64,000 bases of DNA from a phage: NCBI GenBank assembly GCA_011939005.1, contig GCA_011939005.1_4858.1. One strand, written 5' to 3'. The notes beneath the pieces are model-generated. The model searched no databases. It was not told the DNA's origin and was given only the letters and a program-made list of their open reading frames with translations. Made by a program: the position numbers and the translations under genes. This document shows, one piece after another, positions 17,465 through 36,934 of this stretch. Numbering within the stretch: the first letter of the stretch is position 1; every line of letters starts with the position of its first letter.

Positions 17465-17857
17465 ATGGCGATATCTATTAAAGACGTCAGAAACCGCGTC
17501 CAGATAGTCGAAGCTAACATGGCGACAGGCCCCCGCGTCGACGCGCAAGTGGCCTCTAAAGCCCATAATGCGGCAGACCGATTTGGGGGTTGGACGAAAA
17601 CACAGCTAGATTGCGGAGGGACATGTTCTTGGACGTGCTCTAACGGTTGCTCGCATGGCTGTTCGAGCTGTTCAGGAAGCTGTTCTGCTTCTTGTATCGG
17701 TAGCTGTTCTTCGACGTGTGGCGGTAACTGTTCTGGTTGCTCTGGTTGTTCTGGTGGTTGCAGTAGTAGCTGTACCGGTAACTGCACAGGTGGTTGCGGT
17801 GGCTCTTGTTCTTCCAATTGTTCCGGAGCCTGCTCCGGTGGCTGTTCAGGTCGCTAA
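17465..17857 (+). CDS. Cys/Ser/Gly tetrad-repeat small protein A (130 aa); candidate RiPP precursor
   Basis: RBS AAGGAAG; N-terminal ~50 aa non-repetitive leader-like region, then about 21 Cys in C-x3 (sometimes C-x2) spacing built only from C/S/G/T/N/A. Confidence 0.6.
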   Translation: MAISIKDVRNRVQIVEANMATGPRVDAQVASKAHNAADRFGGWTKTQLDCGGTCSWTCSNGCSHGCSSCSGSCSASCIGSCSSTCGGNCSGCSGCSGGCSSSCTGNCTGGCGGSCSSNCSGACSGGCSGR

Positions 17858-22919: not shown

Positions 22920-23447
22920 TTAAACGAATCCGTCCAGTTCACCGTTGGTGGTACTCAGGTCAGTTTTAACGATTGGCTGCGTTACAGTATAAACTGCAAG
23001 GCTGGCAGGCTGGTATTTAATGTGGCCTTCTTTCACCTTAACAGTGATGATTTTCTCACCACTGTCGCCGTCCTCGCGTGTAATGGTGAGTTCAGACAAT
23101 GCAAACGCATCTTCCGTTTTACCGGCAGCAATTAGATCTGCGTTGACAAAAGCAAGCACTTCTTCATCGGTATCCCATTCTGCCTGGTCAGCGGTAACTG
23201 CTTTCGCACCGATGATGTTCAATGAATCGAGGCGGGTATAATGCAGCTCTTTCTCGCCAGTAAAGTTAGCGGATTCCGCGGTGGCAGTGATGGTGAGTTT
23301 GGAGTTGCGATGGTCTCCAGAATCTGCTGGTGAATAGTCAGCAACAGCGCCGAATGTAACGTCAGCAGAAGTTAACGGACTAGACAGTCCGCTGTTTGCA
23401 GCATTAAACAGCGCAACGAGTTGGTCTTTTGCAGAGATGACTGCCAT
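22920..23447 (-). CDS. fiber-like protein, short member of the N-domain paralog family, C-terminal NGELDGF motif
   Basis: Internal ATG with RBS AAGGAAA; N-terminus resembles the 36982-43059 array; ends TNGELDGFV. Confidence 0.5.
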   Translation of the reverse strand: MAVISAKDQLVALFNAANSGLSSPLTSADVTFGAVADYSPADSGDHRNSKLTITATAESANFTGEKELHYTRLDSLNIIGAKAVTADQAEWDTDEEVLAFVNADLIAAGKTEDAFALSELTITREDGDSGEKIITVKVKEGHIKYQPASLAVYTVTQPIVKTDLSTTNGELDGFV

Positions 23448-23571
23448 GGTTGTTTCCTTATAGTAGGTTTGTGGTGCATACCAAATCATTCTAAAAAATA
23501 CATAGTGGGGTTAATATGACAGTAAAGTTGGCTGTTAAACGAGAAAGTTTTTACCACTGAAAGGATACCTT

Positions 23572-26348: not shown

Positions 26349-28517
26349 CTATTTCTTTGGCCGCACCCACGGTTTAGGGGCGGATTTGGTATACGGATTA
26401 CATTCCATCATCTTACCGAGGTAGGCATCGTAATACACGAAGCGATCGACATAGAACTTCTCCACCGGTGCACTACTGGTAGCCGATTTCACCCGGTTGC
26501 GTTCCACAGCGAGGCTAATCGCCCCGGTAGGTGCGGGTTTTAGCGTGAACATTACCGCGCGGTTGTAACGCCAAGTGTCGTGCACAATATCAAACTCCGA
26601 TACACAGTGTGCCATGATACCAAACAATGTGGTGGCTGGTAAGTTGGCTACAGCATCGCCGTATGGTGTTCCCACCAAACCGCCGGGTATGTTTTGCTTT
26701 TTGAACAGCGTACCTGAAATAATCGTACCTAAGAACTCCACAACTACAGGCTTGGTTGGGTCGGTGACTTTATCTATCCCATCCGCACTGGCCAATCGGT
26801 TGGCATCTAAATCTGCGAGGTAGTCGAGGAACTCTTGGTACTCGTCGGTAACATTCGGTTTCACCGTTCCGACGGATACCCAGTTGACGATACTTTTATT
26901 CCCACCGACAGCTTCGCCTGCCATCCCAGGGCGAGTCCATGACATCCCGTCTTCACGACCGTAGACATAGACTGGCGAGCCGGTAGCCGGGGTGTTCCAT
27001 TGCTCGAACGCTGTATATCGTCCCGGCTGGCCCCAATCCCCACCCGGACCGCCATAGTAGCGACTCTGGTAGCCGGTAAATTGCGCGACGACTAACTGGG
27101 TAGCACCGCCTTTGTCACGGGACCCAGCTAAGCCGTTACGGTTATTGGTGCCGCTGGGCACCGCCGCGCCTGGCCCGAGAGGCGCACCACCAGCTCCACC
27201 GATCTTGGTGGTGCTAAACGCATAGTAGTCGCCCCCACCCCCACCACCGGCGATGGTGCCGTAGTTTTCGATGGTGACTTTGCCACGGAAGGTATCGCTA
27301 ATGTGGATTGCGTCAGCTCCGTCCGCTGATGTGTTCGCAGGCATAGAGTAGACCACACCCGAACCACCACGACCAAGAATGGTTCCCCGGTTAACGAAGT
27401 TCCAAACCACCTCGCCAATTTGCGGCAATTCGTCGATAACGAACGTCGGTTTCAGGTTGCTGTCGCGATAAACGAAAGCCCCCGCATCTACGGTCACGTT
27501 AACAAACAAACGCCCGCACGCCGCATGGTTGGTCAACGTTGTGGCCCAGTAGCTGTCCGAAAGTTGCGACGTAGTTGTGTAGTTCAGGTTAAGGGTTTGC
27601 TCGTTATCTTGATAGCGTGCTACATTCAACGTGGCACTGCCCATGACTTTGTACGAACCCTCTACGGGTGCCAATTGCACTTGTCTCGGCCACTCGCCTG
27701 CCAGGTTCTCTACAGGAGCAATTTCGTTTACATCAAAAACACTCCGAATGCCGAGTGTCTCGATGGCCAGAGCATCGTGCAGGCTACCGGTGAAATCATC
27801 CGGGACGTATGTGGTTTTGCCTGCATATGTCTCGAGTTTGTTACGTGAGAAGAACACATACTTCGTTCCAAACATCCCGCTCCCCGGTCTAGCGGTCAAA
27901 GCTACGACGCTGTTATACGCAGAGGTTTGGCCTATATCCTCCGGGGACATCGGGGCGCTGACATCGACTTTATCAAGATCCACGATCCGTTTGGTTGCAT
28001 TAGAGTAGAAGTTAATCCACTGCTGCTTATTCGCAGCCTTTAGCGTGAAAATGATATTGGTAACAGTGTAGACAGTGTTGATATCCACGTCACCGTTTAT
28101 CACATCTAGCGTTTGGCTGCCGTACCAGATAAGACTTGTCTGTTTCGCCTGGAACGTGATGCGCGCAGCATTGTTTGTCCAAGTGATGGGCAGGTCTTCA
28201 AAGTCGTCGGTTAAAAAGGTAATCCCTAGTAGAGTGTCTAAATGCGGCAACAGTTCGTGGATGGACGCACAAGTGGGAATGGCATCCAACTTAACCTTGG
28301 CGAAATAATCAGCAATATTTTGCTTCGTGACTTGGGCCGTAATTTGACCGTAACTAGAATACCCCGGACCCCCTGTCAGTGTGACGTCTAGGGTTTTTTC
28401 GTCACGATGCGCCACGGACACCAGGCGTACGTTAGCGGGGTCTACTGCTTTGGCGACCGCGTTTTTACGGTTGAGCGACCGAATCACGGTCGCCACTAAA
28501 TCGGGAGTGTATGACAT
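26349..28517 (-). CDS. fiber-like protein (722 aa) with Gly-rich region; N-domain paralog family
   Basis: RBS AAGG; N-terminal module resembles the array genes; poly-Gly/GGxGG segment. Confidence 0.6.
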   Translation of the reverse strand: MSYTPDLVATVIRSLNRKNAVAKAVDPANVRLVSVAHRDEKTLDVTLTGGPGYSSYGQITAQVTKQNIADYFAKVKLDAIPTCASIHELLPHLDTLLGITFLTDDFEDLPITWTNNAARITFQAKQTSLIWYGSQTLDVINGDVDINTVYTVTNIIFTLKAANKQQWINFYSNATKRIVDLDKVDVSAPMSPEDIGQTSAYNSVVALTARPGSGMFGTKYVFFSRNKLETYAGKTTYVPDDFTGSLHDALAIETLGIRSVFDVNEIAPVENLAGEWPRQVQLAPVEGSYKVMGSATLNVARYQDNEQTLNLNYTTTSQLSDSYWATTLTNHAACGRLFVNVTVDAGAFVYRDSNLKPTFVIDELPQIGEVVWNFVNRGTILGRGGSGVVYSMPANTSADGADAIHISDTFRGKVTIENYGTIAGGGGGGDYYAFSTTKIGGAGGAPLGPGAAVPSGTNNRNGLAGSRDKGGATQLVVAQFTGYQSRYYGGPGGDWGQPGRYTAFEQWNTPATGSPVYVYGREDGMSWTRPGMAGEAVGGNKSIVNWVSVGTVKPNVTDEYQEFLDYLADLDANRLASADGIDKVTDPTKPVVVEFLGTIISGTLFKKQNIPGGLVGTPYGDAVANLPATTLFGIMAHCVSEFDIVHDTWRYNRAVMFTLKPAPTGAISLAVERNRVKSATSSAPVEKFYVDRFVYYDAYLGKMMECNPYTKSAPKPWVRPKK

Positions 28518-28531
28518 GGTGACACCTTAGT

Positions 28532-29851
28532 CTATAGCGCTGGATACCAAGGGACCGGGGCAGTTTTGCTATATGGACTGTAGACCATATAGCCGCCTTT
28601 GCTTGGGTCGTAATAGATGAAATAGTTACAGTAATTCGAGTAGAGGCTCGTCATTTGTTTGGATTGGTATCCGTTACGGTATAGTCCCTGGTAAGTAGTA
28701 GCTGATGTCGTGGTGGTGTAAGCAGTGTGGTACAGTACCCGACGTCGGTTAGCAATACTTTCTTGGAACATCTCTTCGGTCGGAAACGCGTGTTGCATCA
28801 GCCGTCGAATACTCCCGGTACAGTATCGAGTGCCATACGGGGAACCCGTTAAATCATCCGCAGTTTCAGGCGATTCTGCCCGAGTCAACACGTACTCGTT
28901 TTGATACAACGTGACGCTCATCGAATTTGGGCTGGTTTCCCGGAAACTCATGTAACGCGCATAACGTTCGACGTCCTCTTCCTGCGCCAAATAGGCCACG
29001 TTATTTTTCGGACCAAAGTGCAAGAAGAACGGACGGCGGAGATTACCCATATCCTCAGGTGGCGTCAACTTCACGCAGTAATTGTACTCCCCACGCATAT
29101 CAGGGTCTAAGCCTGGGTTGTTATTGCGTGTAGCGACATACCCATAGAGGTCATACGGGTTATCAGTAGCAGCATTACCGATAGTGAACGGGATGCCCGA
29201 CCATGCCGACAGCGCCGCGATGAACTGGGTCATGTACGAGTTACTGTTTAGTCGCAGCGGGGTACCCATCTGGATATTGATTATCTGTTGGGTGTACATG
29301 CTCCAGTCGAGTCGATAGACCGTGCTGTAAACATCCATGGGTTCCCAAGCTCCGGTTTCGGTGGTGTGGTACAAGTCGGCAAAGCTGGGCTCTTCACGAA
29401 TAAAGCTAATAGGAATGTGACCCGTGAATGCGGGGTTATCCGATTTAATCGCCACCGTCCGATCGCCCGTTGCCACAGTGATCATTGCAAACTGGCTGTC
29501 AGGATACGTTAAATCGTCAGCAGTAAGCACCAGCCCACAAGCTGCGGAAATCCGGTCGATGATGTCGCGGTAGACCGTCGCCCGATAAGGTACTTTAACC
29601 GGTACGCTGACGCCTTTAAAATACTGCGAAAGGTTTAAGCGGTCGTAGTAGATGTCCATCTTACCGCTGTAACCACCACCCTGTAATCCGTTTACCACGA
29701 TACGGCTGTTGCGACCATCGCGCAAGGCATTGGTTAAAGGACCTTGTAATAACGCCACGTTGGTTGCGTTGAGCGGTTTCTTGAGCTGCGGGTTATCACG
29801 ATTAATCTGATCCCAAACCAGTTGCATGACAGGTTTGTTATAGTTGATCAT
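28532..29851 (-). CDS. fiber-like protein (439 aa), N-domain paralog
   Basis: Starts MINYNKP..L..QINRDNP, VYYDRLNL motif shared by family. Confidence 0.6.
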   Translation of the reverse strand: MINYNKPVMQLVWDQINRDNPQLKKPLNATNVALLQGPLTNALRDGRNSRIVVNGLQGGGYSGKMDIYYDRLNLSQYFKGVSVPVKVPYRATVYRDIIDRISAACGLVLTADDLTYPDSQFAMITVATGDRTVAIKSDNPAFTGHIPISFIREEPSFADLYHTTETGAWEPMDVYSTVYRLDWSMYTQQIINIQMGTPLRLNSNSYMTQFIAALSAWSGIPFTIGNAATDNPYDLYGYVATRNNNPGLDPDMRGEYNYCVKLTPPEDMGNLRRPFFLHFGPKNNVAYLAQEEDVERYARYMSFRETSPNSMSVTLYQNEYVLTRAESPETADDLTGSPYGTRYCTGSIRRLMQHAFPTEEMFQESIANRRRVLYHTAYTTTTSATTYQGLYRNGYQSKQMTSLYSNYCNYFIYYDPSKGGYMVYSPYSKTAPVPWYPAL

Positions 29852-29895: not shown

Positions 29896-30086
29896 TAGCT
29901 GTTATGGTGAAGTACGCTATCCCTTTAACTCCAGCTGCTTCGACGTCAGTTTGGATAACCACGCGGCCGTACGCTTTATTAGCGAAATTGAATCAGCGCT
30001 GATTCGACCTGCGAGTTCAGGGTTATCCCTTACGACTTGTTGGCAGAGCAGTTCCAGTGCGCTATACAATCCCATGAAGTCTCCTG

Positions 30087-30986
30087 TTAAGGCAGAACGA
30101 GTTCAAGTACCGCGATAGAACGTATTGTATTGGTTTCGTATCTACCGTACGACGGCGACTCTGGGTAGGGTGGACGGTTGTACCACTGATTGTAAATGTC
30201 AGACATAGCCGCAAAGAATGCAGATTGTTGGGCAGTAGTCGAATCGATTGAACCGACCGGAAGGTCGTCAAAGCGCGGCAACTGCCCACTGTAGTTGTAC
30301 AGGCGCGCGAAAGTGTTAAACCACTCACCGTCGAGATACAACTCACTGTTACCGCTTCTAACGTTAGTCGTCCAGAATCTGTAGTCGAACAAATACGGCA
30401 AGCGCACCACGTATTCGTAACCGTTCTTCGCCACCGTGCGGCGTTGGTTACGTGCAGTGGCCCAGCTCGGTACAAATCCATTGCCATCCTGGCCGTACAT
30501 CAGCCCCTGGTTATAAATGAACTGCGGGCTAGCGTATATTATCGAGTTATCGGACATAAACAGAATACGGTTTTTGTAAATGAATTTATGCCAGGCACCA
30601 ACGGCGGAACTGAACATATTCACCACGAGGCTGTTCAGTTCCGCGTTAGTGAATAACTCTGCTGGCGTTACTGTTCCAAAGTATCCAGCGTGCCAGTCGC
30701 CGTATAACAGCTTCTGGGGGCCAGGCCCGGTGTCTAAAAAGAACCCTTGGGCGGTAGGGGTGTTGAAGACACGCTCACCGTCTTTAACCGCAGCTATCCA
30801 ATAACGGTAAGTGGTGTTGTTTTCCACAGCGTTGTCTTCGTACGATGTAGCGTCACCCGGAAGGGTTGCCAGAGGCGTTCCCGGTGCATTAACATCAATG
30901 GTGGCGTTGCCCGGCGTCTTGCGATAGATTTCAATGTTATCGAGCGCCTGTGGCTTCCGTTGTGCAAAGTTTAATGTAATAGGCAT
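30087..30986 (-). CDS. fiber-like protein (about 300 aa): FN3-like N-module plus GPGP module
   Basis: Internal ATG overlaps stop of upstream gene; TTYRYW..AVKDGER and DTGPGPQ motifs. Confidence 0.55.
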   Translation of the reverse strand: MPITLNFAQRKPQALDNIEIYRKTPGNATIDVNAPGTPLATLPGDATSYEDNAVENNTTYRYWIAAVKDGERVFNTPTAQGFFLDTGPGPQKLLYGDWHAGYFGTVTPAELFTNAELNSLVVNMFSSAVGAWHKFIYKNRILFMSDNSIIYASPQFIYNQGLMYGQDGNGFVPSWATARNQRRTVAKNGYEYVVRLPYLFDYRFWTTNVRSGNSELYLDGEWFNTFARLYNYSGQLPRFDDLPVGSIDSTTAQQSAFFAAMSDIYNQWYNRPPYPESPSYGRYETNTIRSIAVLELVLP

Positions 30987-30988
30987 GA

Positions 30989-31978
30989 TTAATCCTCGAT
31001 AAGCTCGATTACTGGAATCCAAATACCGCCCACGGTCGCACCAGGGACATGTTGTATACGCTGGAGGTTATCCACGGTATCAGTGGAATCCGTCGTCGCT
31101 GTTCCGCGCGTCAGCCCCAACTTACGGTCTGGGTCAAACTCCTGACAATGCACCCCACGGCCACTCACCACCGATCCATTTCCGAATATGCTGATGTTCG
31201 ACCGCGTTAACAGGGACATCACTTTTTTCTTTGCTGGGAACCAGGTACTTATCCCATAGATGAGTCGGTTGTATTCGCTATCGGCAGTATACGGTGACAC
31301 GTCATGGATTTTTCCGTCCCACTGTGCATCGAGCGCCATGACCGGACTTTCACTGTCGTGTGTTAAACCGCGCAGCAATCGCATCCGATAGCGGTCACCC
31401 AACCACGTAAACTCCCCAGACTGGTCAACGTCAGGTAAATCACCATGACCGCCTTCCGGACCAGGTCCCGCCACACCGTACAGCAAACCCGCGTTATAAA
31501 TCGCATCACGGCTATACAGCGTGTTGCCGTTCACACGAAGACCACTAAGCAGATACAGAATTTTACCGTCTAGCTGGAACTTAAACAAGTACAGCTTAAC
31601 AGTTGGGTCAATTCCAGAAAGGGCCACAAACCCTGGCGGATAATCACCCACGCTAGGCAATTCATCGTACGCCACATTCCCGTAATACGCAAAGCGGTCA
31701 TCACCGTACTGTGGAGTCACGATGCCGATACCGCGACGGTTCTGAATCAGAATTGATTTCTGCGGACTGAACAGTGTCCGGCTTCCCACTGTCACGGTGG
31801 TCATGTAGTAATACGTTGTCCCCAGTATCGCTGTTCGGTCAGTATACTCAGTTTCCCCGTTAGTGAACGTTGCCAGAGGTTCAGGTAATGCCGTACGCAC
31901 CAGAGGTTTGGTGTCGCGGTACAGCTTCACGGTCGAAGCCCCAGGGTTATTGTTCGTCCAACGAATTGTAAAAGCCAT
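30989..31978 (-). CDS. fiber-like protein (329 aa): FN3-like N-module plus GPGPEGGHG module
   Basis: Starts MAFTIRW; paralog of 34434-35432. Confidence 0.55.
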   Translation of the reverse strand: MAFTIRWTNNNPGASTVKLYRDTKPLVRTALPEPLATFTNGETEYTDRTAILGTTYYYMTTVTVGSRTLFSPQKSILIQNRRGIGIVTPQYGDDRFAYYGNVAYDELPSVGDYPPGFVALSGIDPTVKLYLFKFQLDGKILYLLSGLRVNGNTLYSRDAIYNAGLLYGVAGPGPEGGHGDLPDVDQSGEFTWLGDRYRMRLLRGLTHDSESPVMALDAQWDGKIHDVSPYTADSEYNRLIYGISTWFPAKKKVMSLLTRSNISIFGNGSVVSGRGVHCQEFDPDRKLGLTRGTATTDSTDTVDNLQRIQHVPGATVGGIWIPVIELIED

Positions 31979-31990
31979 TGTCGTTACCTC

Positions 31991-33487
31991 TTATTGGAAT
32001 CCATCCAACTCACCGTTAGTATCGCCCAGAGTAATTTTTGAAGGTTGGGCGATTTGGTCAGTCGTGAGAATAATCGGTCTAATCTTAACGCTAGCCATGC
32101 CTGTTACCGCGACGGAATATGCACGTTCATCATTGTCCGTCGTGGCAAGCAGAGGACGTGGTGAGTCTGATGACGCTTCCCGTACCCAGGCAGGGGTGGC
32201 AGTTTCGGTGTTGTCGGTGTTGAAAACTAACGGACGTGGATTCGCTGCAGCGGAGGTTTCCGTAATCGGCACCACACGAAGCGATTCATTTTGGTCGATG
32301 TCCGTCAGAGTAACCACGGACGGTGCCCATGTTAGTTCTGCACCTTCGTCAATCAACGGCACAGGTTCATTGGCAACATCAATCATCTCCAAGATTGGCC
32401 AAAAGCCAGAAGAGGTGTAGATGTAGGTGTATGAACGATAGCTCCCACTGATAGACTGGTAATACGCTTGGTCGGCACCGAACTGGTGTCGTAACCACAC
32501 GTAATCCAGGAAGTTAGCATCAGTCGTGCTAAGAGTTCCCCATTCCCCATATACGTTCACCGACCCCAATTTGCTGGTCAGTGACAGGATAGAGGTGATT
32601 GACGGCGGTTTACTCCAATCAGGCGCGGCGGCGTTCTCGGTGTAATACGGGATAGACATTCTGAAATAATGCGTTCCTTCATCATCCCGTTTTACCATGT
32701 ATTTCAACTGTTCAACATCGACAGGTGTGTAAGTCGACTTCGGGCGAGGTCCTGCGTCTCCGGAATCAAATATTGCACCCTTGTTGTACAGGTCTGCCCA
32801 GGTAACGTTGCAAATCGCACGGGTCGGAACAAACACTACCGCCCCATTCAGAAAGAATTTGAGCCACTTGATAGCGTAGCGGTTAGGCCAGTTGGTGCCG
32901 TTATAGAGGGCATACACCATTTCATCAGATGTGAATAACTCTTCCGCGCTTACCAGCCCAAAAAATCCGTATAACTCATTACCGGCCATTAATCCTTTTG
33001 GCCCAGGGCCCGACTTCGGATACATCGCAATCGGTTCGTAAACATAGGTCATCTTGCATGACCCGGTATAGCACAAGGAGTTAGCGTGCGCCGTCAGAGT
33101 TACAGTTTCTGGCGTAGCGTATTTCATTAATGCAACGTTTGGACTGGTGATGTCACTCGCGGTTAAGTTCAACCCGTTCAATTCATTGAACGCCGGTAAC
33201 GCTTCCGCATGGGTTTGTGCGCTACGTGGAATACTCACCATCTTCGGGCCAGACTTGAACAGACTGGCCAGATTCAACCGGTCGTAATAGACCGTTATTT
33301 CCCCAGCAAATCCTTTACCGGGTTTACCTACCAACGTAATCTGTGTGTTTCGTCCGTTAACGTTTTTCGCAACAGGAACACCCCTGACCCCAATGGAGTC
33401 AGCGGTGATTTTTCCTGCTAAACCGGGATTGTCACGCACAATTTGTTGGCAGAGCAGTTCCATTGAAGGTTCTGTATACAACCCCAT
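31991..33487 (-). CDS. fiber-like protein (498 aa): N-domain, GPGP module, C-terminal NGELDGF
   Basis: RBS GGAG; VYYDRLNL, SGPGPKGL, ends TNGELDGFQ. Confidence 0.6.
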   Translation of the reverse strand: MGLYTEPSMELLCQQIVRDNPGLAGKITADSIGVRGVPVAKNVNGRNTQITLVGKPGKGFAGEITVYYDRLNLASLFKSGPKMVSIPRSAQTHAEALPAFNELNGLNLTASDITSPNVALMKYATPETVTLTAHANSLCYTGSCKMTYVYEPIAMYPKSGPGPKGLMAGNELYGFFGLVSAEELFTSDEMVYALYNGTNWPNRYAIKWLKFFLNGAVVFVPTRAICNVTWADLYNKGAIFDSGDAGPRPKSTYTPVDVEQLKYMVKRDDEGTHYFRMSIPYYTENAAAPDWSKPPSITSILSLTSKLGSVNVYGEWGTLSTTDANFLDYVWLRHQFGADQAYYQSISGSYRSYTYIYTSSGFWPILEMIDVANEPVPLIDEGAELTWAPSVVTLTDIDQNESLRVVPITETSAAANPRPLVFNTDNTETATPAWVREASSDSPRPLLATTDNDERAYSVAVTGMASVKIRPIILTTDQIAQPSKITLGDTNGELDGFQ

Positions 33488-33500
33488 GGCTTTTACTCCG

Positions 33501-34424
33501 TTACGGTAAGACTAATTCAAAAGCAAAGAATATCGTGGCCGAGTTCCCGACACCTGCGGTGTTACTAATCACCATAGGCACGGTGCCATACGCATAAGCG
33601 AATATGTTGTTGCTCCACAAAGGAGCTAATACAGCGGCACCTGACTCATTCGGCTGCACAGTCGCGCCTTGTCTTGCAAGTGAGTCAATCGCACCAAGAC
33701 CGAGGGCTGCGAACTGTGCACCGACAGGATACAAACGGCCCATTGTGTTTCGCCATTCACCGTTGTTGTAATCCTGTCCTGAGAGAACAGCGTCGTACGG
33801 GACTGCGTAAGGTAATCGGATACGGTACGTACGACCATCCTTCGTGACCTTACAATCTTGTTTAGTCGCCGTGGCTCCCTGCGGAACAATACTTCCGACA
33901 TCATCGGTCCCGTACATCATACCGTACTGATACGCCATTTGTACCGAGTTGGTTTTCGAATGCATCGTCGCTGGGAAGAAGACAATTCTCCCACGGAAAA
34001 TAAACTTGTGCCATTCCTGAGGGTCGTAGACAAACATGTTTCCCTGCTGTGCAGTCAACATAAGCTTCAGCTCGGCGGTATTAAAGAACTCGGTATTCGG
34101 TACTGTACCGAAATAACCTGAAGCCCAGTCACCACGCAAAATAGTTTGCGGACCCGGCCCGGTGTCCGGATAGAATCCTTGCGTAATCGGATTGCCGATA
34201 AGTCGTTCACTGTCCTTCACAGCAGCTACCCAATAACGATAGGTTGTATTCTTCGTCAGAGTATCGATATTATCTACGAACTCTACCGCGTTGCCCGATA
34301 AAGTTGCGTGGGGTGTGCCTGGATTGTAAACGTCGATTGTTGCGTTCCAACCTTCCTTGCGGTAGATTTCAATCGCGGTAAGACCTTTGCTGGCTTGGGA
34401 CGGCCAGCTTAACCGTATAGTCAT
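33501..34424 (-). CDS. fiber-like protein (307 aa): FN3-like N-module plus GPGP module
   Basis: Starts MTIRLSW; TTYRYWVAAVKDSER; DTGPGPQ. Confidence 0.55.
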   Translation of the reverse strand: MTIRLSWPSQASKGLTAIEIYRKEGWNATIDVYNPGTPHATLSGNAVEFVDNIDTLTKNTTYRYWVAAVKDSERLIGNPITQGFYPDTGPGPQTILRGDWASGYFGTVPNTEFFNTAELKLMLTAQQGNMFVYDPQEWHKFIFRGRIVFFPATMHSKTNSVQMAYQYGMMYGTDDVGSIVPQGATATKQDCKVTKDGRTYRIRLPYAVPYDAVLSGQDYNNGEWRNTMGRLYPVGAQFAALGLGAIDSLARQGATVQPNESGAAVLAPLWSNNIFAYAYGTVPMVISNTAGVGNSATIFFAFELVLP

Positions 34425-34433
34425 GACTGCCCC

Positions 34434-35432
34434 TTACTCGACCAGTTCAAAGATAGGGTAGTAACGCCCTTTCGTGGTGGGTGATAAATAGTTTATACGC
34501 TGAATCGTGGATACGGGTGTTCCACCGGCATTGTTAAAAATGCCACGATGGACCACACGGTCTTCCGCGGTGTCGTGTTCCATACAGAGAACTCCGGCAC
34601 CGAAATACGTTGCCGAGGTTCCCAAATTAGCCTGCCCCAGATAAGTATAACTGTTCGCTGCCCAGTTAGCCCAACGCTGTTTCCTCGGCACCTCGTTAAC
34701 CATCGTGTAAAGTAAATCGTTATACTCACACGGGTTGGTTAGAGAAGCGATTTCATCGTGGGTTTTCCCATTGTAGTCAGCTACGAAAGGATACGCAGGA
34801 GACTCGCTAGACGTCGTCAGGCCGCGAGGAAGACGCATAATGTACGTATCCCCTTTGTGGACTATCTTAGCGTCTTGTGGAGTGGCCGGTAGCGTTCCAT
34901 GGCCGTTCTCTGGGCCAGCATCGCCCGTACCATAGACTAAACCAGCTTGATAGAGGGAAGCCCAGTCCACAGGCGTATTCGGGAACTGCGACGTGTTAGA
35001 TAGCATGTAATAGATCTTCCCGTTTCGGGTAAATTTATACAACGCCACACGATCGGTTAACAGGTTAGGGAACATCGCCAAAAATGCAGGTGGCATTTGC
35101 GACGGAAGCCACTGTTCGTCGTAAGGAACCTCACCCATAAACCCTAAACGGTCGTTGCCGTTTAGAATAGTCATTGGGCCTATCCCGCGTTTTACCTCAA
35201 TGGTATATTTCTGGCTAGACGACGCTACTGTTTTACCGTTGGCGGTTACCGTCAGAAGGTAATAATAGGTTGCGCCTGGTGTGGCGGTGGTATCACGCCA
35301 TTCTGTCTCGCCGTTTGAGAGCGTTGCAATCGGTTCAGGCAAAGCGCTTGGTGTGATATCTTTAACATCACGGTAGATTTTTACTACCGTAGAGATTACG
35401 TTTGGATTTTTCCAACGCAAAGTAAAAGACAT
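34434..35432 (-). CDS. fiber-like protein (332 aa): FN3-like N-module plus GPENGHG module
   Basis: Starts MSFTLRW; paralog of 30989-31978. Confidence 0.55.
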   Translation of the reverse strand: MSFTLRWKNPNVISTVVKIYRDVKDITPSALPEPIATLSNGETEWRDTTATPGATYYYLLTVTANGKTVASSSQKYTIEVKRGIGPMTILNGNDRLGFMGEVPYDEQWLPSQMPPAFLAMFPNLLTDRVALYKFTRNGKIYYMLSNTSQFPNTPVDWASLYQAGLVYGTGDAGPENGHGTLPATPQDAKIVHKGDTYIMRLPRGLTTSSESPAYPFVADYNGKTHDEIASLTNPCEYNDLLYTMVNEVPRKQRWANWAANSYTYLGQANLGTSATYFGAGVLCMEHDTAEDRVVHRGIFNNAGGTPVSTIQRINYLSPTTKGRYYPIFELVE

Positions 35433-35443
35433 AGATGATACCT

Positions 35444-36934
35444 CTACTTAAAGCCGTCCAGTTCACCGTTAAGAGACGTTAACGTTGTCTTGTCAGGGGG
35501 CGTATACATTTCAGCGGTAGCCGCAATAGGTTGAAAATCGACAGTCTTCGGCAGCATTAATGCAGGCGGATGCAGTGCGAAACTGTTTTCTGAAGTAACG
35601 GCCACAGGTTGAAAATCGACAGTCTTCGGCAGCATTAATGCAGGCGGATGCAGTGCGAAACTGTTTTCTGAAGTAACAACTACCGGTTCGAAATCGGTAG
35701 TATCTGGATTACCGAGCACCAACGGCTTGAGACTAAACGTGTTTTCTGCGGACACGCTGCACGGTTGGAGGCTGTAATCTACCGCGCCGTGGATATCTTC
35801 TAAGCCCAAGGTAACCGTGGACTTATCCACCAACTCCAGCACCGGGAACCAGTAGTAGTTGCCCGCACTCGATGATTTTTCTAAGTTTGTCCAACTTGCT
35901 CCAGACAACGTCGCCATGCGATGATTGGCGACGTTGGTGTTCAGTGTATCTTTCAATAAACAGAACAGCGTCCAGTAACTGTTAATCGGTTTGTCCCACG
36001 TTCCATTATACAGAAAGTTGAACATCTCAAACTCACTACCTGCTAACTCAGCGGCAGTTGGGGTGCCGCTGACGTATGGGTCTTTCCCGGCACTAGGTAG
36101 ACGAACGCGGAAGTAAAACCTTTTGTTGTCTGCGCCTGTAAAGCTAATGATGCGTCCCTGGTTAACGGGCGTCGCCGCAGGGTATTTACCATTATCATCT
36201 GTTCCGTAAACGAGTCCGTTTGTATATAACGTATTCCAGGAGATGGAGCTAGCGACAGGACTGATCGGAAGGTAAATAACCCTACCCTGGTAAAAGAACT
36301 TGTACCAACCTTCGGCACCAGAATGTACCGGTGGTAACGCACCGGCCGATATAGTGGCATTAAGAAGTTGAGAGTGTGTAAACAACTCTGCAATTGTGGT
36401 TGTTCCGAAATAACCCGCGATAGTGTTACCTTGCAGCAACGTTTTAGGGCCAGGTCCAGAATCGGGGTAAATTGCACCGCTCGGGACGGTATAACGTATC
36501 GTTAAGCTGCCTATAAACGCAGGGCAATTACCTGAGATATTTAATTTCAACGTCTGCGGCGAAGCGCTCGGTTTAGGTAAACTTGCGTCAGGTGACTGCA
36601 AATCAGAAGCAACTAATGTAAGCCCCAATGCGTCGTTTATTGCAGGTAGCGCGTCTCGTACCGTTAAGACTGTATCTTTGATAGCCACAGTCGGCACAAA
36701 ATTAAATAAAGTGGCCAGGTTAATCCGGTCGTAGTACACGGTAACATTACCTTGTACACCTGTCCCTGGATACCCGGTGAAAACAGCTTTGGTGTTACGT
36801 TGGTTTAACGTAACTGAAGTTGGGCCGCTGGTTAAAGCAGCGATAGCCGGTGTCAGCTTAACAACTAAATCAGGGTTATCCCGATTGACTTGGTCGTATA
36901 CAAGCAGTGCCGACTCCTTCGAGTAAAATAGCAT
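35444..36934 (-). CDS. fiber-like protein (496 aa): N-domain, GPGP module, internal 26-aa tandem repeats, C-terminal NGELDGF
   Basis: VYYDRINL; DSGPGPK; repeated KTVDFQPVAVTSENSFALHPPALMLP; ends NGELDGFK. Confidence 0.6.
   Translation of the reverse strand: MLFYSKESALLVYDQVNRDNPDLVVKLTPAIAALTSGPTSVTLNQRNTKAVFTGYPGTGVQGNVTVYYDRINLATLFNFVPTVAIKDTVLTVRDALPAINDALGLTLVASDLQSPDASLPKPSASPQTLKLNISGNCPAFIGSLTIRYTVPSGAIYPDSGPGPKTLLQGNTIAGYFGTTTIAELFTHSQLLNATISAGALPPVHSGAEGWYKFFYQGRVIYLPISPVASSISWNTLYTNGLVYGTDDNGKYPAATPVNQGRIISFTGADNKRFYFRVRLPSAGKDPYVSGTPTAAELAGSEFEMFNFLYNGTWDKPINSYWTLFCLLKDTLNTNVANHRMATLSGASWTNLEKSSSAGNYYWFPVLELVDKSTVTLGLEDIHGAVDYSLQPCSVSAENTFSLKPLVLGNPDTTDFEPVVVTSENSFALHPPALMLPKTVDFQPVAVTSENSFALHPPALMLPKTVDFQPIAATAEMYTPPDKTTLTSLNGELDGFK
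35524..35684 (-). repeat. 78-bp period tandem direct repeat inside the 496-aa gene
   Basis: Two copies identical over 71 nt (GGTTGAAAATCGACAGTCTTCGGCAGCATTAATGCAGGCGGATGCAGTGCGAAACTGTTTTCTGAAGTAAC), flanked by degenerate copies. Confidence 0.85.

Follow-up and report, generated by a model that had tools for sequence, protein, structure and literature searches.

An in-frame repeat-unit gain in the C-terminal tail of a DUF7941 virion protein of a SPN3US-like jumbo phage

The gene and its duplicated repeat unit

We analysed a stretch of 64,000 nucleotides (nt) of contig GCA_011939005.1_4858.1 (GenBank assembly GCA_011939005.1), hereafter the window, which belongs to a SPN3US-like jumbo phage (genus Seoulvirus). 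One of its genes encodes a virion protein of 496 amino acids (aa) that contains, near its C-terminus, a tandem duplication of 26 codons. This gene is the ortholog of that for SPN3US gp145 (SPN3US_0145; AEP83978 / YP_009153439; product name "putative virion structural protein 12"), to which it is ~97.5% identical at the nt level; it occupies the same place among the paralogs of the gp138-gp154 array and encodes a protein built of the same three parts. It is 97-98% identical at the nt level to its counterparts in SPN3US, SEGD1, EC001, the SPFM and SPLA phages, and Proteus phage 7. SPN3US gp145 measures 470 aa and carries one B-type repeat unit, whereas the protein of the window carries two. An identical 496-aa protein has two NCBI accessions (EOR9476978.1 / EET4800435.1); it is annotated in E. 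coli, on a contig of 241,068 bp. The duplication is real, heritable, derived and in-frame, and represents an ordinary copy-number polymorphism. The features of the locus are as follows (TRF, Tandem Repeats Finder; ORF, open reading frame).

35444..36934, minus strand: gene for the 496-aa virion protein, SPN3US gp145 ortholog (from ORF, identity and synteny)
36485..36934, minus strand: N-terminal DUF7941 module, aa 1-150
35819..36481, minus strand: middle globular domain, aa ~152-372, C-type-lectin-like / FGE-like fold
35447..35818, minus strand: C-terminal tail, aa 373-496, with the 26-aa repeat array, predicted unstructured in the monomer
35696..35779, minus strand: unit A, aa 386-413, DYSLQPCSVSAENTFSLKPLVLGNPDTT, old and degenerate
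35618..35695, minus strand: unit B, aa 414-439, DFEPVVVTSENSFALHPPALMLPKTV, found in all relatives
35540..35617, minus strand: unit B' (extra unit), aa 440-465, DFQPVAVTSENSFALHPPALMLPKTV, from unit-by-unit DNA comparison
35447..35539, minus strand: unit C with the terminal motif, aa 466-496, DFQPIAATAEMYTPPDKTTLTSLNGELDGFK
35606..35677: exact repeat copy 1, 72 nt (TRF and period-78 scan)
35528..35599: exact repeat copy 2, 72 nt (TRF and period-78 scan)
35600..35605, minus strand: junction hexamer GTGGCC (Val-Ala), different from the flanking GTAGTT and ATTGCG

The 64-kb window contains a single strong tandem repeat, located at 35528..35677 (period 78, 1.9 copies, 100% matches in TRF), which can be extended to 35528..35696 (2.2 copies, 93% matches). 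A direct scan at period 78 delimited an exact direct repeat of 72 nt (35528-35599 = 35606-35677), whose exactness cannot be due to chance. A sequence-only reading of this stretch had described a perfect 78-bp tandem duplication, with copies identical over 71 nt and degenerate flanking copies. The near-identical tandem copies near the C-terminus of the 496-aa protein are indeed present, with an exact run of 72 nt instead of 71, and unit A (DYSLQPCSVSAENTFSLKPLVLGNPDTT), upstream of the repeat, corresponds to a degenerate flanking copy; however, the duplication is not perfect over 78 nt, as six junction bases differ. The layout on the coding strand is GTAGTT-[72 nt]-GTGGCC-[72 nt]-ATTGCG and, 78 nt being 26 codons, the frame is kept inside the intact minus-strand ORF 35444..36934. 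The tail can thus be read as four units, A, B, B' and C, with the order DFEPVVVTSENSFALHPPALMLPKTV, DFQPVAVTSENSFALHPPALMLPKTV, DFQPIAATAEMYTPPDKTTLTSLNGELDGFK at the repeat itself and the older, degenerate DYSLQPCSVSAENTFSLKPLVLGNPDTT upstream. Unit B' has a hybrid make-up, in which 18 nt identical to the start of unit C are followed by the 6-nt junction and by 54 nt identical to the end of unit B. The GTGGCC hexamer had no second donor in the window, where it was a single occurrence even with three mismatches allowed. It is diagnostic for the two-copy allele, and provides a handy marker for tracking it by polymerase chain reaction (PCR) or at the read level.

We considered and rejected a function of the repeat at the DNA or RNA level, since it lies wholly within one ORF, in frame, with no opposite-strand ORF of at least 60 aa across it. 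Another tandem repeat, a weak one, is located at 17678..17735 (period 24, 2.4 copies, 76% matches).

Copy number and history of the long allele

We compared the locus with 34 related phage records and two metagenome contigs (36 DNA sequences). The gene was 1413 nt long (470 aa) or unscorable in 32 of the 34 phage records, and JN03 (MT799840) was the only one of them with a 1491-nt gene. Gene length was unscorable in the error-rich SPFM assemblies, which matched in 19-23 pieces; a junction-centred query revealed no duplication in them. This query, of 106 nt, aligned collinearly in JN03 only. Translation of the gene from ten relatives showed one B-type unit in nine of them and two in JN03, and the two metagenome contigs (~242 kb) had a single B unit each. 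The protein belongs to a cluster of 295 sequences, most of which could not be listed; the listed members were 470 aa long, except for two of 496 aa, one frameshifted of 459 aa and one partial. No more than two unit counts were seen in the 36 DNA sequences and in those cluster members that were listed, and they differ between genomes that are 97-98% identical, as in other polymorphisms of coding tandem repeats. The variability between isolates anticipated by the sequence-only reading, and the comparison with related genomes that it had proposed as a check, are both borne out by JN03, with 1491 nt against the 1413 nt of its relatives and the only extra unit among the 34 phage records.

The direction of the change can be read from more distant orthologs. 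In SPAsTU and many Erwinia phages (40-76% identity) the protein has 456-478 aa and a short tail. Downstream of the LELVD motif, the tail measures 98-100 aa in 18 of 20 orthologs and 86 aa in the other two, both devoid of the terminal motif, against 126 aa in the window; no unit-sized indel was observed in these 20 orthologs. Since the short form is found in the relatives other than JN03 as well as in the distant orthologs, the extra unit is a derived insertion.

Additional searches for the long allele and its relatives gave no match for the junction 24-mer in IMG/VR, for the gene in complete E. coli genomes or for a unit-B 23-mer in GTDB genomes; IMG/VR contained no close genomes beyond SPN3US, and a contig look-up by exact protein found nothing further. 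Near-identical copies of the 496-aa protein are common on ~240-kb contigs of NCBI assemblies from isolates of Salmonella enterica and E. coli, so that SPN3US-like phages often accompany sequenced bacterial isolates, whether as contaminants, in a carrier state or by pseudolysogeny.

Short-read assembly can get the number of tandem copies wrong, and here the copies are exact over 72 nt, which made a mis-expanded repeat, also envisaged by the sequence-only reading, a matter to weigh. However, the 72-nt repeat is shorter than usual read lengths, the identical protein exists under two NCBI accessions, and the junction hexamer GTGGCC, unlike either flank, must have been read from real DNA. In addition, JN03, which was sequenced independently, has the same junction and two differences between its copies. 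As collapse or expansion of a single-copy template cannot create GTGGCC, and JN03 shares it, an assembly artefact is highly improbable and essentially excluded.

The hexamer also informs about the history of the duplication. GTGGCC matches neither GTAGTT (unit B) nor ATTGCG (unit C) and is identical in JN03; therefore, the long allele has a single shared origin. Any simple duplication model requires at least three substitutions in the 6-nt junction versus none in the 72-nt repeat. If substitutions were evenly distributed over the 78-nt unit, the probability that all three fell in the hexamer would be (6/78)^3, or ~5e-4, according to our calculation. The window and JN03 also share three to four synonymous states (GCA, ACT, TTT and GAT) that are absent from single-unit alleles, with the exception of GAT, which is found in SPLA3 too. 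These sites fall in the repeated segment, so that the shared states are present in both copies. Both copies of JN03 carry two further changes (CCC and CCA) with respect to the window, and its second copy a TCA>GCG replacement (Ser>Ala). In the rest of the gene, the window differs from EC001 at 20 positions and from JN03 at 38, and it matches SPLA3 directly upstream of the repeat. The locus is thus a mosaic, closer to EC001 along the gene and like SPLA3 upstream of the repeat, and the long allele was seen in at least two mosaic phage lineages.

These patterns suggest either an older allele homogenised by recombination or an imported one. It is doubtful that the duplication is "very recent", as had been concluded from nucleotide identity: this does not follow from copy identity alone, and the substitutions private to the long allele in both copies, the junction changes, at least three against none in the repeat, and the concerted changes of JN03 point the other way. 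We infer that the additional unit may have arisen when two neighbouring degenerate units paired 78 nt out of register and underwent unequal recombination, or when replication slipped between them, because a hybrid with the start of C and the end of B, such as unit B', is the product expected from such a misalignment. The long allele would then have spread by recombination among co-circulating phages, and the copies would have been kept alike by further exchange between them. The concerted JN03 changes hint at ongoing exchange, although any hypervariability has to be judged on the two alleles seen.

In-frame gain of a coding repeat in a phage structural gene is a known phenomenon, and in-frame polymorphisms of repeat number are known in phages, for instance in the collagen-like repeats of dairy-phage receptor-binding proteins. 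The similarity lies in a unit number that varies through recombination of a tandem coding repeat, with the frame kept. The case of the window differs in that the 26-aa motif is uncharacterised, only two alleles occur and the protein is not a proven receptor-binding protein.

Protein family, terminal motif and possible role of the tail

DUF7941 proteins, or paralog family B, form the largest virion protein family of SPN3US-like phages, and their location and role are disputed between "head" (proteomics) and a baseplate-anchored "fibre cloud" for host recognition (2026 preprint). The 496-aa protein matched PF25613 (DUF7941) well above the gathering score (110.6 bits, the cut-off being 27; E 1.2e-31), with aa 1-150 covering profile positions 1-153 of 276. 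It does not contain the complete module (N-domain, linker and C-domain; profile 1-276), and the neighbouring paralogs of 276-303 aa match DUF7941 over their full length. Its best PHROG was phrog_3589 (1.5e-174). In the SPN3US literature, paralog family B comprises gp83, gp138-154 and others (PMC5694885), all assigned to the head since they are retained in tailless mutants (PMC5694885, PMC5105663). In particular, gp145 was detected by mass spectrometry in virions and tailless heads (PMC5694885, PMC10052503), and Table S2 of PMC10052503 labels it "B, Head", its spectral counts for wild-type virions being comparable to those for head-only particles.

Three other features of the window are relevant to the nature of this protein and of its tail.

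31991..33487, minus strand: 498-aa paralog, SPN3US gp148-like, with the same three-part build and a divergent tail that ends NGELDGFQ
22920..23489, minus strand: 189-aa protein with the DUF7941 N-domain only, ending in KTDLSTTNGELDGFV, a motif at the canonical inter-domain linker position
26349..28517, minus strand: 722-aa protein in which DUF7941 is matched by two stretches and a Gp38 tail-fibre adhesin domain lies at aa 373-553 (PF05268, 65.7 bits, E 7e-18)

The sequence-only reading had called the gene a fiber paralog, which is correct only in part. The phiKZ gp131-like fibre candidates of SPN3US form a separate family C, gp168-170 (PMC5694885). We rejected a phiKZ gp131-type tail fibre, as neither a gp131-like N-segment nor a beta-propeller C-domain was recognised by Pfam, PHROG or fold, and the closest structural match was phiKZ gp127, not gp131-135. 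The published gp145 data also speak against the absence from tailless particles that would be expected of such a fibre. The gene is, consequently, not a classical tail-fibre gene: the protein belongs to DUF7941 / paralog family B, and proteomics places it in the head. On the other hand, a fibre-like role receives some support from the preprint that proposes DUF7941 host-recognition filaments and from the Gp38 adhesin domain of the 722-aa paralog. This domain supports a host-recognition role for array members, and a receptor-binding adhesin on a family B protein is a poor fit with the idea of an internal head or ejection function.

An AlphaFold2 model built on an alignment of 27 sequences (mean predicted local distance difference test score, pLDDT, 73.7) was confident for residues 1-372, with two domains; aa 380-496, including the entire repeat array, had a pLDDT of 30-45 and no secondary structure. 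The N-domain has a fold like that of the solved N-domain of phiKZ gp127 (PDB 9XQD chain 0, outer peripheral baseplate), at 16-17% sequence identity; gp127 is a baseplate protein, whereas the SPN3US-type protein is reported in the head. PDB sequence searches with the protein, its 27-sequence profile and a canonical paralog retrieved nothing useful, and Pfam on the tail alone gave no match to DUF7941 and no other credible match. The last 40 aa reach the same level of conservation as the N-domain (mean pairwise identity of 0.47 vs 0.46).

This conserved end (NGELDGFK here; terminal peptide KTxLxxxNGELDGF) provides a clue about the tail. Three proteins of the window, those of 496, 498 and 189 aa, end in NGELDGF[K/Q/V]. 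The C-terminus of the 189-aa protein is 47% identical to aa 465-495 of the 496-aa protein over 34 aa (BLASTP, E 2e-4) and, in a MAFFT alignment, it falls on the inter-domain linker of canonical paralogs of 265-303 aa (xLxxVVTxxxLxGLxYP) and on that of Goslar gp22 and gp23, gp23 being aligned through Pfam profile position 174. BLASTP found no significant match between the 189-aa paralog and Goslar gp23. The terminal peptide looks like the DUF7941 inter-protomer linker, which in a preprint on phage Goslar is docked by AlphaFold onto the N-domain of the next protomer (bioRxiv 10.64898/2026.04.21.720040). According to the same work, purified gp22 forms filaments, some DUF7941 proteins have carbohydrate-binding or leucine-rich repeat (LRR) domains, and Goslar-type DUF7941 proteins have been proposed to combine head-to-tail polymerisation with host-recognition domains in a baseplate-anchored "fibre cloud" (bioRxiv 10.64898/2026.04.21.720040).

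The N-modules of Goslar gp22/gp23 and other chimallivirus DUF7941 proteins belong to the same Pfam family as that of the window protein, and short DUF7941 paralogs have a linker-like motif (LxGLxYP / ADGFVKP / ELDGF) after the N-domain. In the window protein, by contrast, a lectin-like domain replaces the C-domain and a repeat tail of ~100 aa precedes the linker-like motif; moreover, filaments are reported for purified Goslar gp22, whereas our protein was compared by sequence and monomer model. The 189-aa protein has the terminal module of the gp145-like and gp148-like proteins. It is analogous to Goslar gp23, and its counterpart in SPN3US is probably the abundant gp160.

Because the terminal motif resembles the linker docked on the next protomer in the Goslar preprint, we favour a tail that would act as a tether from the lectin-like domain to a docking peptide, the latter binding the N-domain of the next subunit. 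The extra unit would lengthen this tether by 26 residues, or add one strand-like contact element, and the phage would tolerate it. We give a probability of roughly 0.6 to this explanation as a whole, namely a real, derived, in-frame unit gain by recombination or slippage that lengthens the docking tether of a DUF7941 virion protein.

Several observations weigh against it. In the AlphaFold2 monomer the tail is not docked on its own N-domain, the tail alone is unmatched by Pfam DUF7941, and the proposed homology with the linker comes from one MAFFT alignment and one short BLASTP match. Docking of this tail on a partner is a prediction. The near-constant tail length of the orthologs suggests that length matters, so that the insertion, instead of being tolerated, may be slightly deleterious. 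Proteomics puts gp145 in heads, which fits poorly with a baseplate filament (PMC10052503). Finally, the existence of frameshift variants and Erwinia orthologs without the terminal motif indicates that it is dispensable in some phages. A homopolymer lies directly upstream of the motif.

35496..35500: G5 run (C5 on the coding strand), codons Thr478-Pro480

The frameshift of the 459-aa variant (P0051, three contigs from Salmonella isolates), which ends YTPPPTRQR, lies at or next to this C5 run, as does that of phage SaP7, and both remove the terminal motif; the orthologs of the Erwinia phages Caitlin and Machina naturally end at YTPPES. The C5 run may be a slippage hot spot or a sequencing error.

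Alternatively, the tail might be a structured, probably oligomeric fibre shaft in which each 26-aa unit would be a rung, so that the duplication would lengthen a rigid fibre, in line with the length-variable fiber of the sequence-only reading. The low confidence of the AlphaFold2 tail is compatible with this idea, as a monomer model would fail on an intertwined shaft, and the near-constant tail length, the alternating hydrophobic pattern of each unit across orthologs and the Gp38 adhesin domain on a paralog of the same array also agree with it. A phmmer search of the tail against 1.8 billion representatives recovered the orthologs and, in addition, phage proteins of 1050-1293 aa made of DFDPQAVTTENNFSQLDAETLDLx repeated 25-29 times (E ~5e-10 summed over 7-10 stretches). 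Three such proteins (P0062, P0064 and P0066, without Pfam or PHROG match) are encoded at the end of structural modules, in tail-fibre gene position, on uncultured phage contigs (L025-L028). The core D-F-x-P-x-x-V-T-x-E-N-x-F-x-x-L is common to their repeats and to units B and B', but they have a period of 24 aa and 25-29 copies, against a period of 26 aa in the window protein. However, a hidden Markov model of the 24-aa units scored ~2 bits on the SPN3US-clade units only and missed the distant orthologs. The reverse profile thus did not confirm homology between the 26-aa unit and the 24-aa fibre repeats, which we keep as a lead, and we consider a rigid shaft unlikely. One 40-kb contig with 24-aa repeats also encodes PolA, Prim-Pol and an adenylosuccinate-synthetase-like gene.

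The duplication could also be a neutral or slightly harmful hitch-hiker in a floppy spacer, with no phenotype attached to unit number. The tail is predicted to be disordered, variants even without the terminal motif exist, and there are only two alleles, the long one being rare (2 of the 36 sequences plus two listed cluster members). Nevertheless, tail length and motifs are conserved down to ~40% identity, unlike in a free spacer, and the long allele has persisted until it diverged between two lineages, so we regard this alternative as quite unlikely.

Within a network of DUF7941 filaments, the 26-aa units might serve as modules for docking or spacing. Each unit, or the resulting tether length, would set the presentation of the lectin-like domain on the virion, and unit gain or loss by recombination would tune adsorption or host range. 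The known carriers of the long allele are an E. coli-associated phage and a Salmonella phage, and we put this extension forward as a long shot. Small and ordinary by itself, the polymorphism derives its value from being a natural experiment on the DUF7941 family: the tail is near-constant across 20 orthologs yet accepts a whole extra unit, and comparing phages with one and two units could reveal what the tail does.

Variation in the middle domain and the paralog array

The middle domain is also found in the neighbouring genes 33501..34424 and 34434..35432. Within the gene for the 496-aa protein, 112 of 500 positions are different between SPLA3 and the window in the region of the lectin-like domain (~35934-36434, coding nt 500-1000), against only 26 and 22 differing positions in the outer thirds of the gene. 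The pattern in the middle third looks as if the putative ligand-binding domain had been swapped by recombination.

At ~29,946-29,986, between ORFs 28532..29851 and 30087..31022, the window is devoid of a block of ~3.35 kb present in SPN3US and SEGD1 that, by coordinates, holds the three genes SPN3US_0151-0153, for a copy of the repeated module of a long DUF7941 protein and two lectin-like proteins. Judging from gene spacing, EC001 and SPLA3 appear to lack this block too. From its presence or absence it follows that the paralog array also varies by whole modules.

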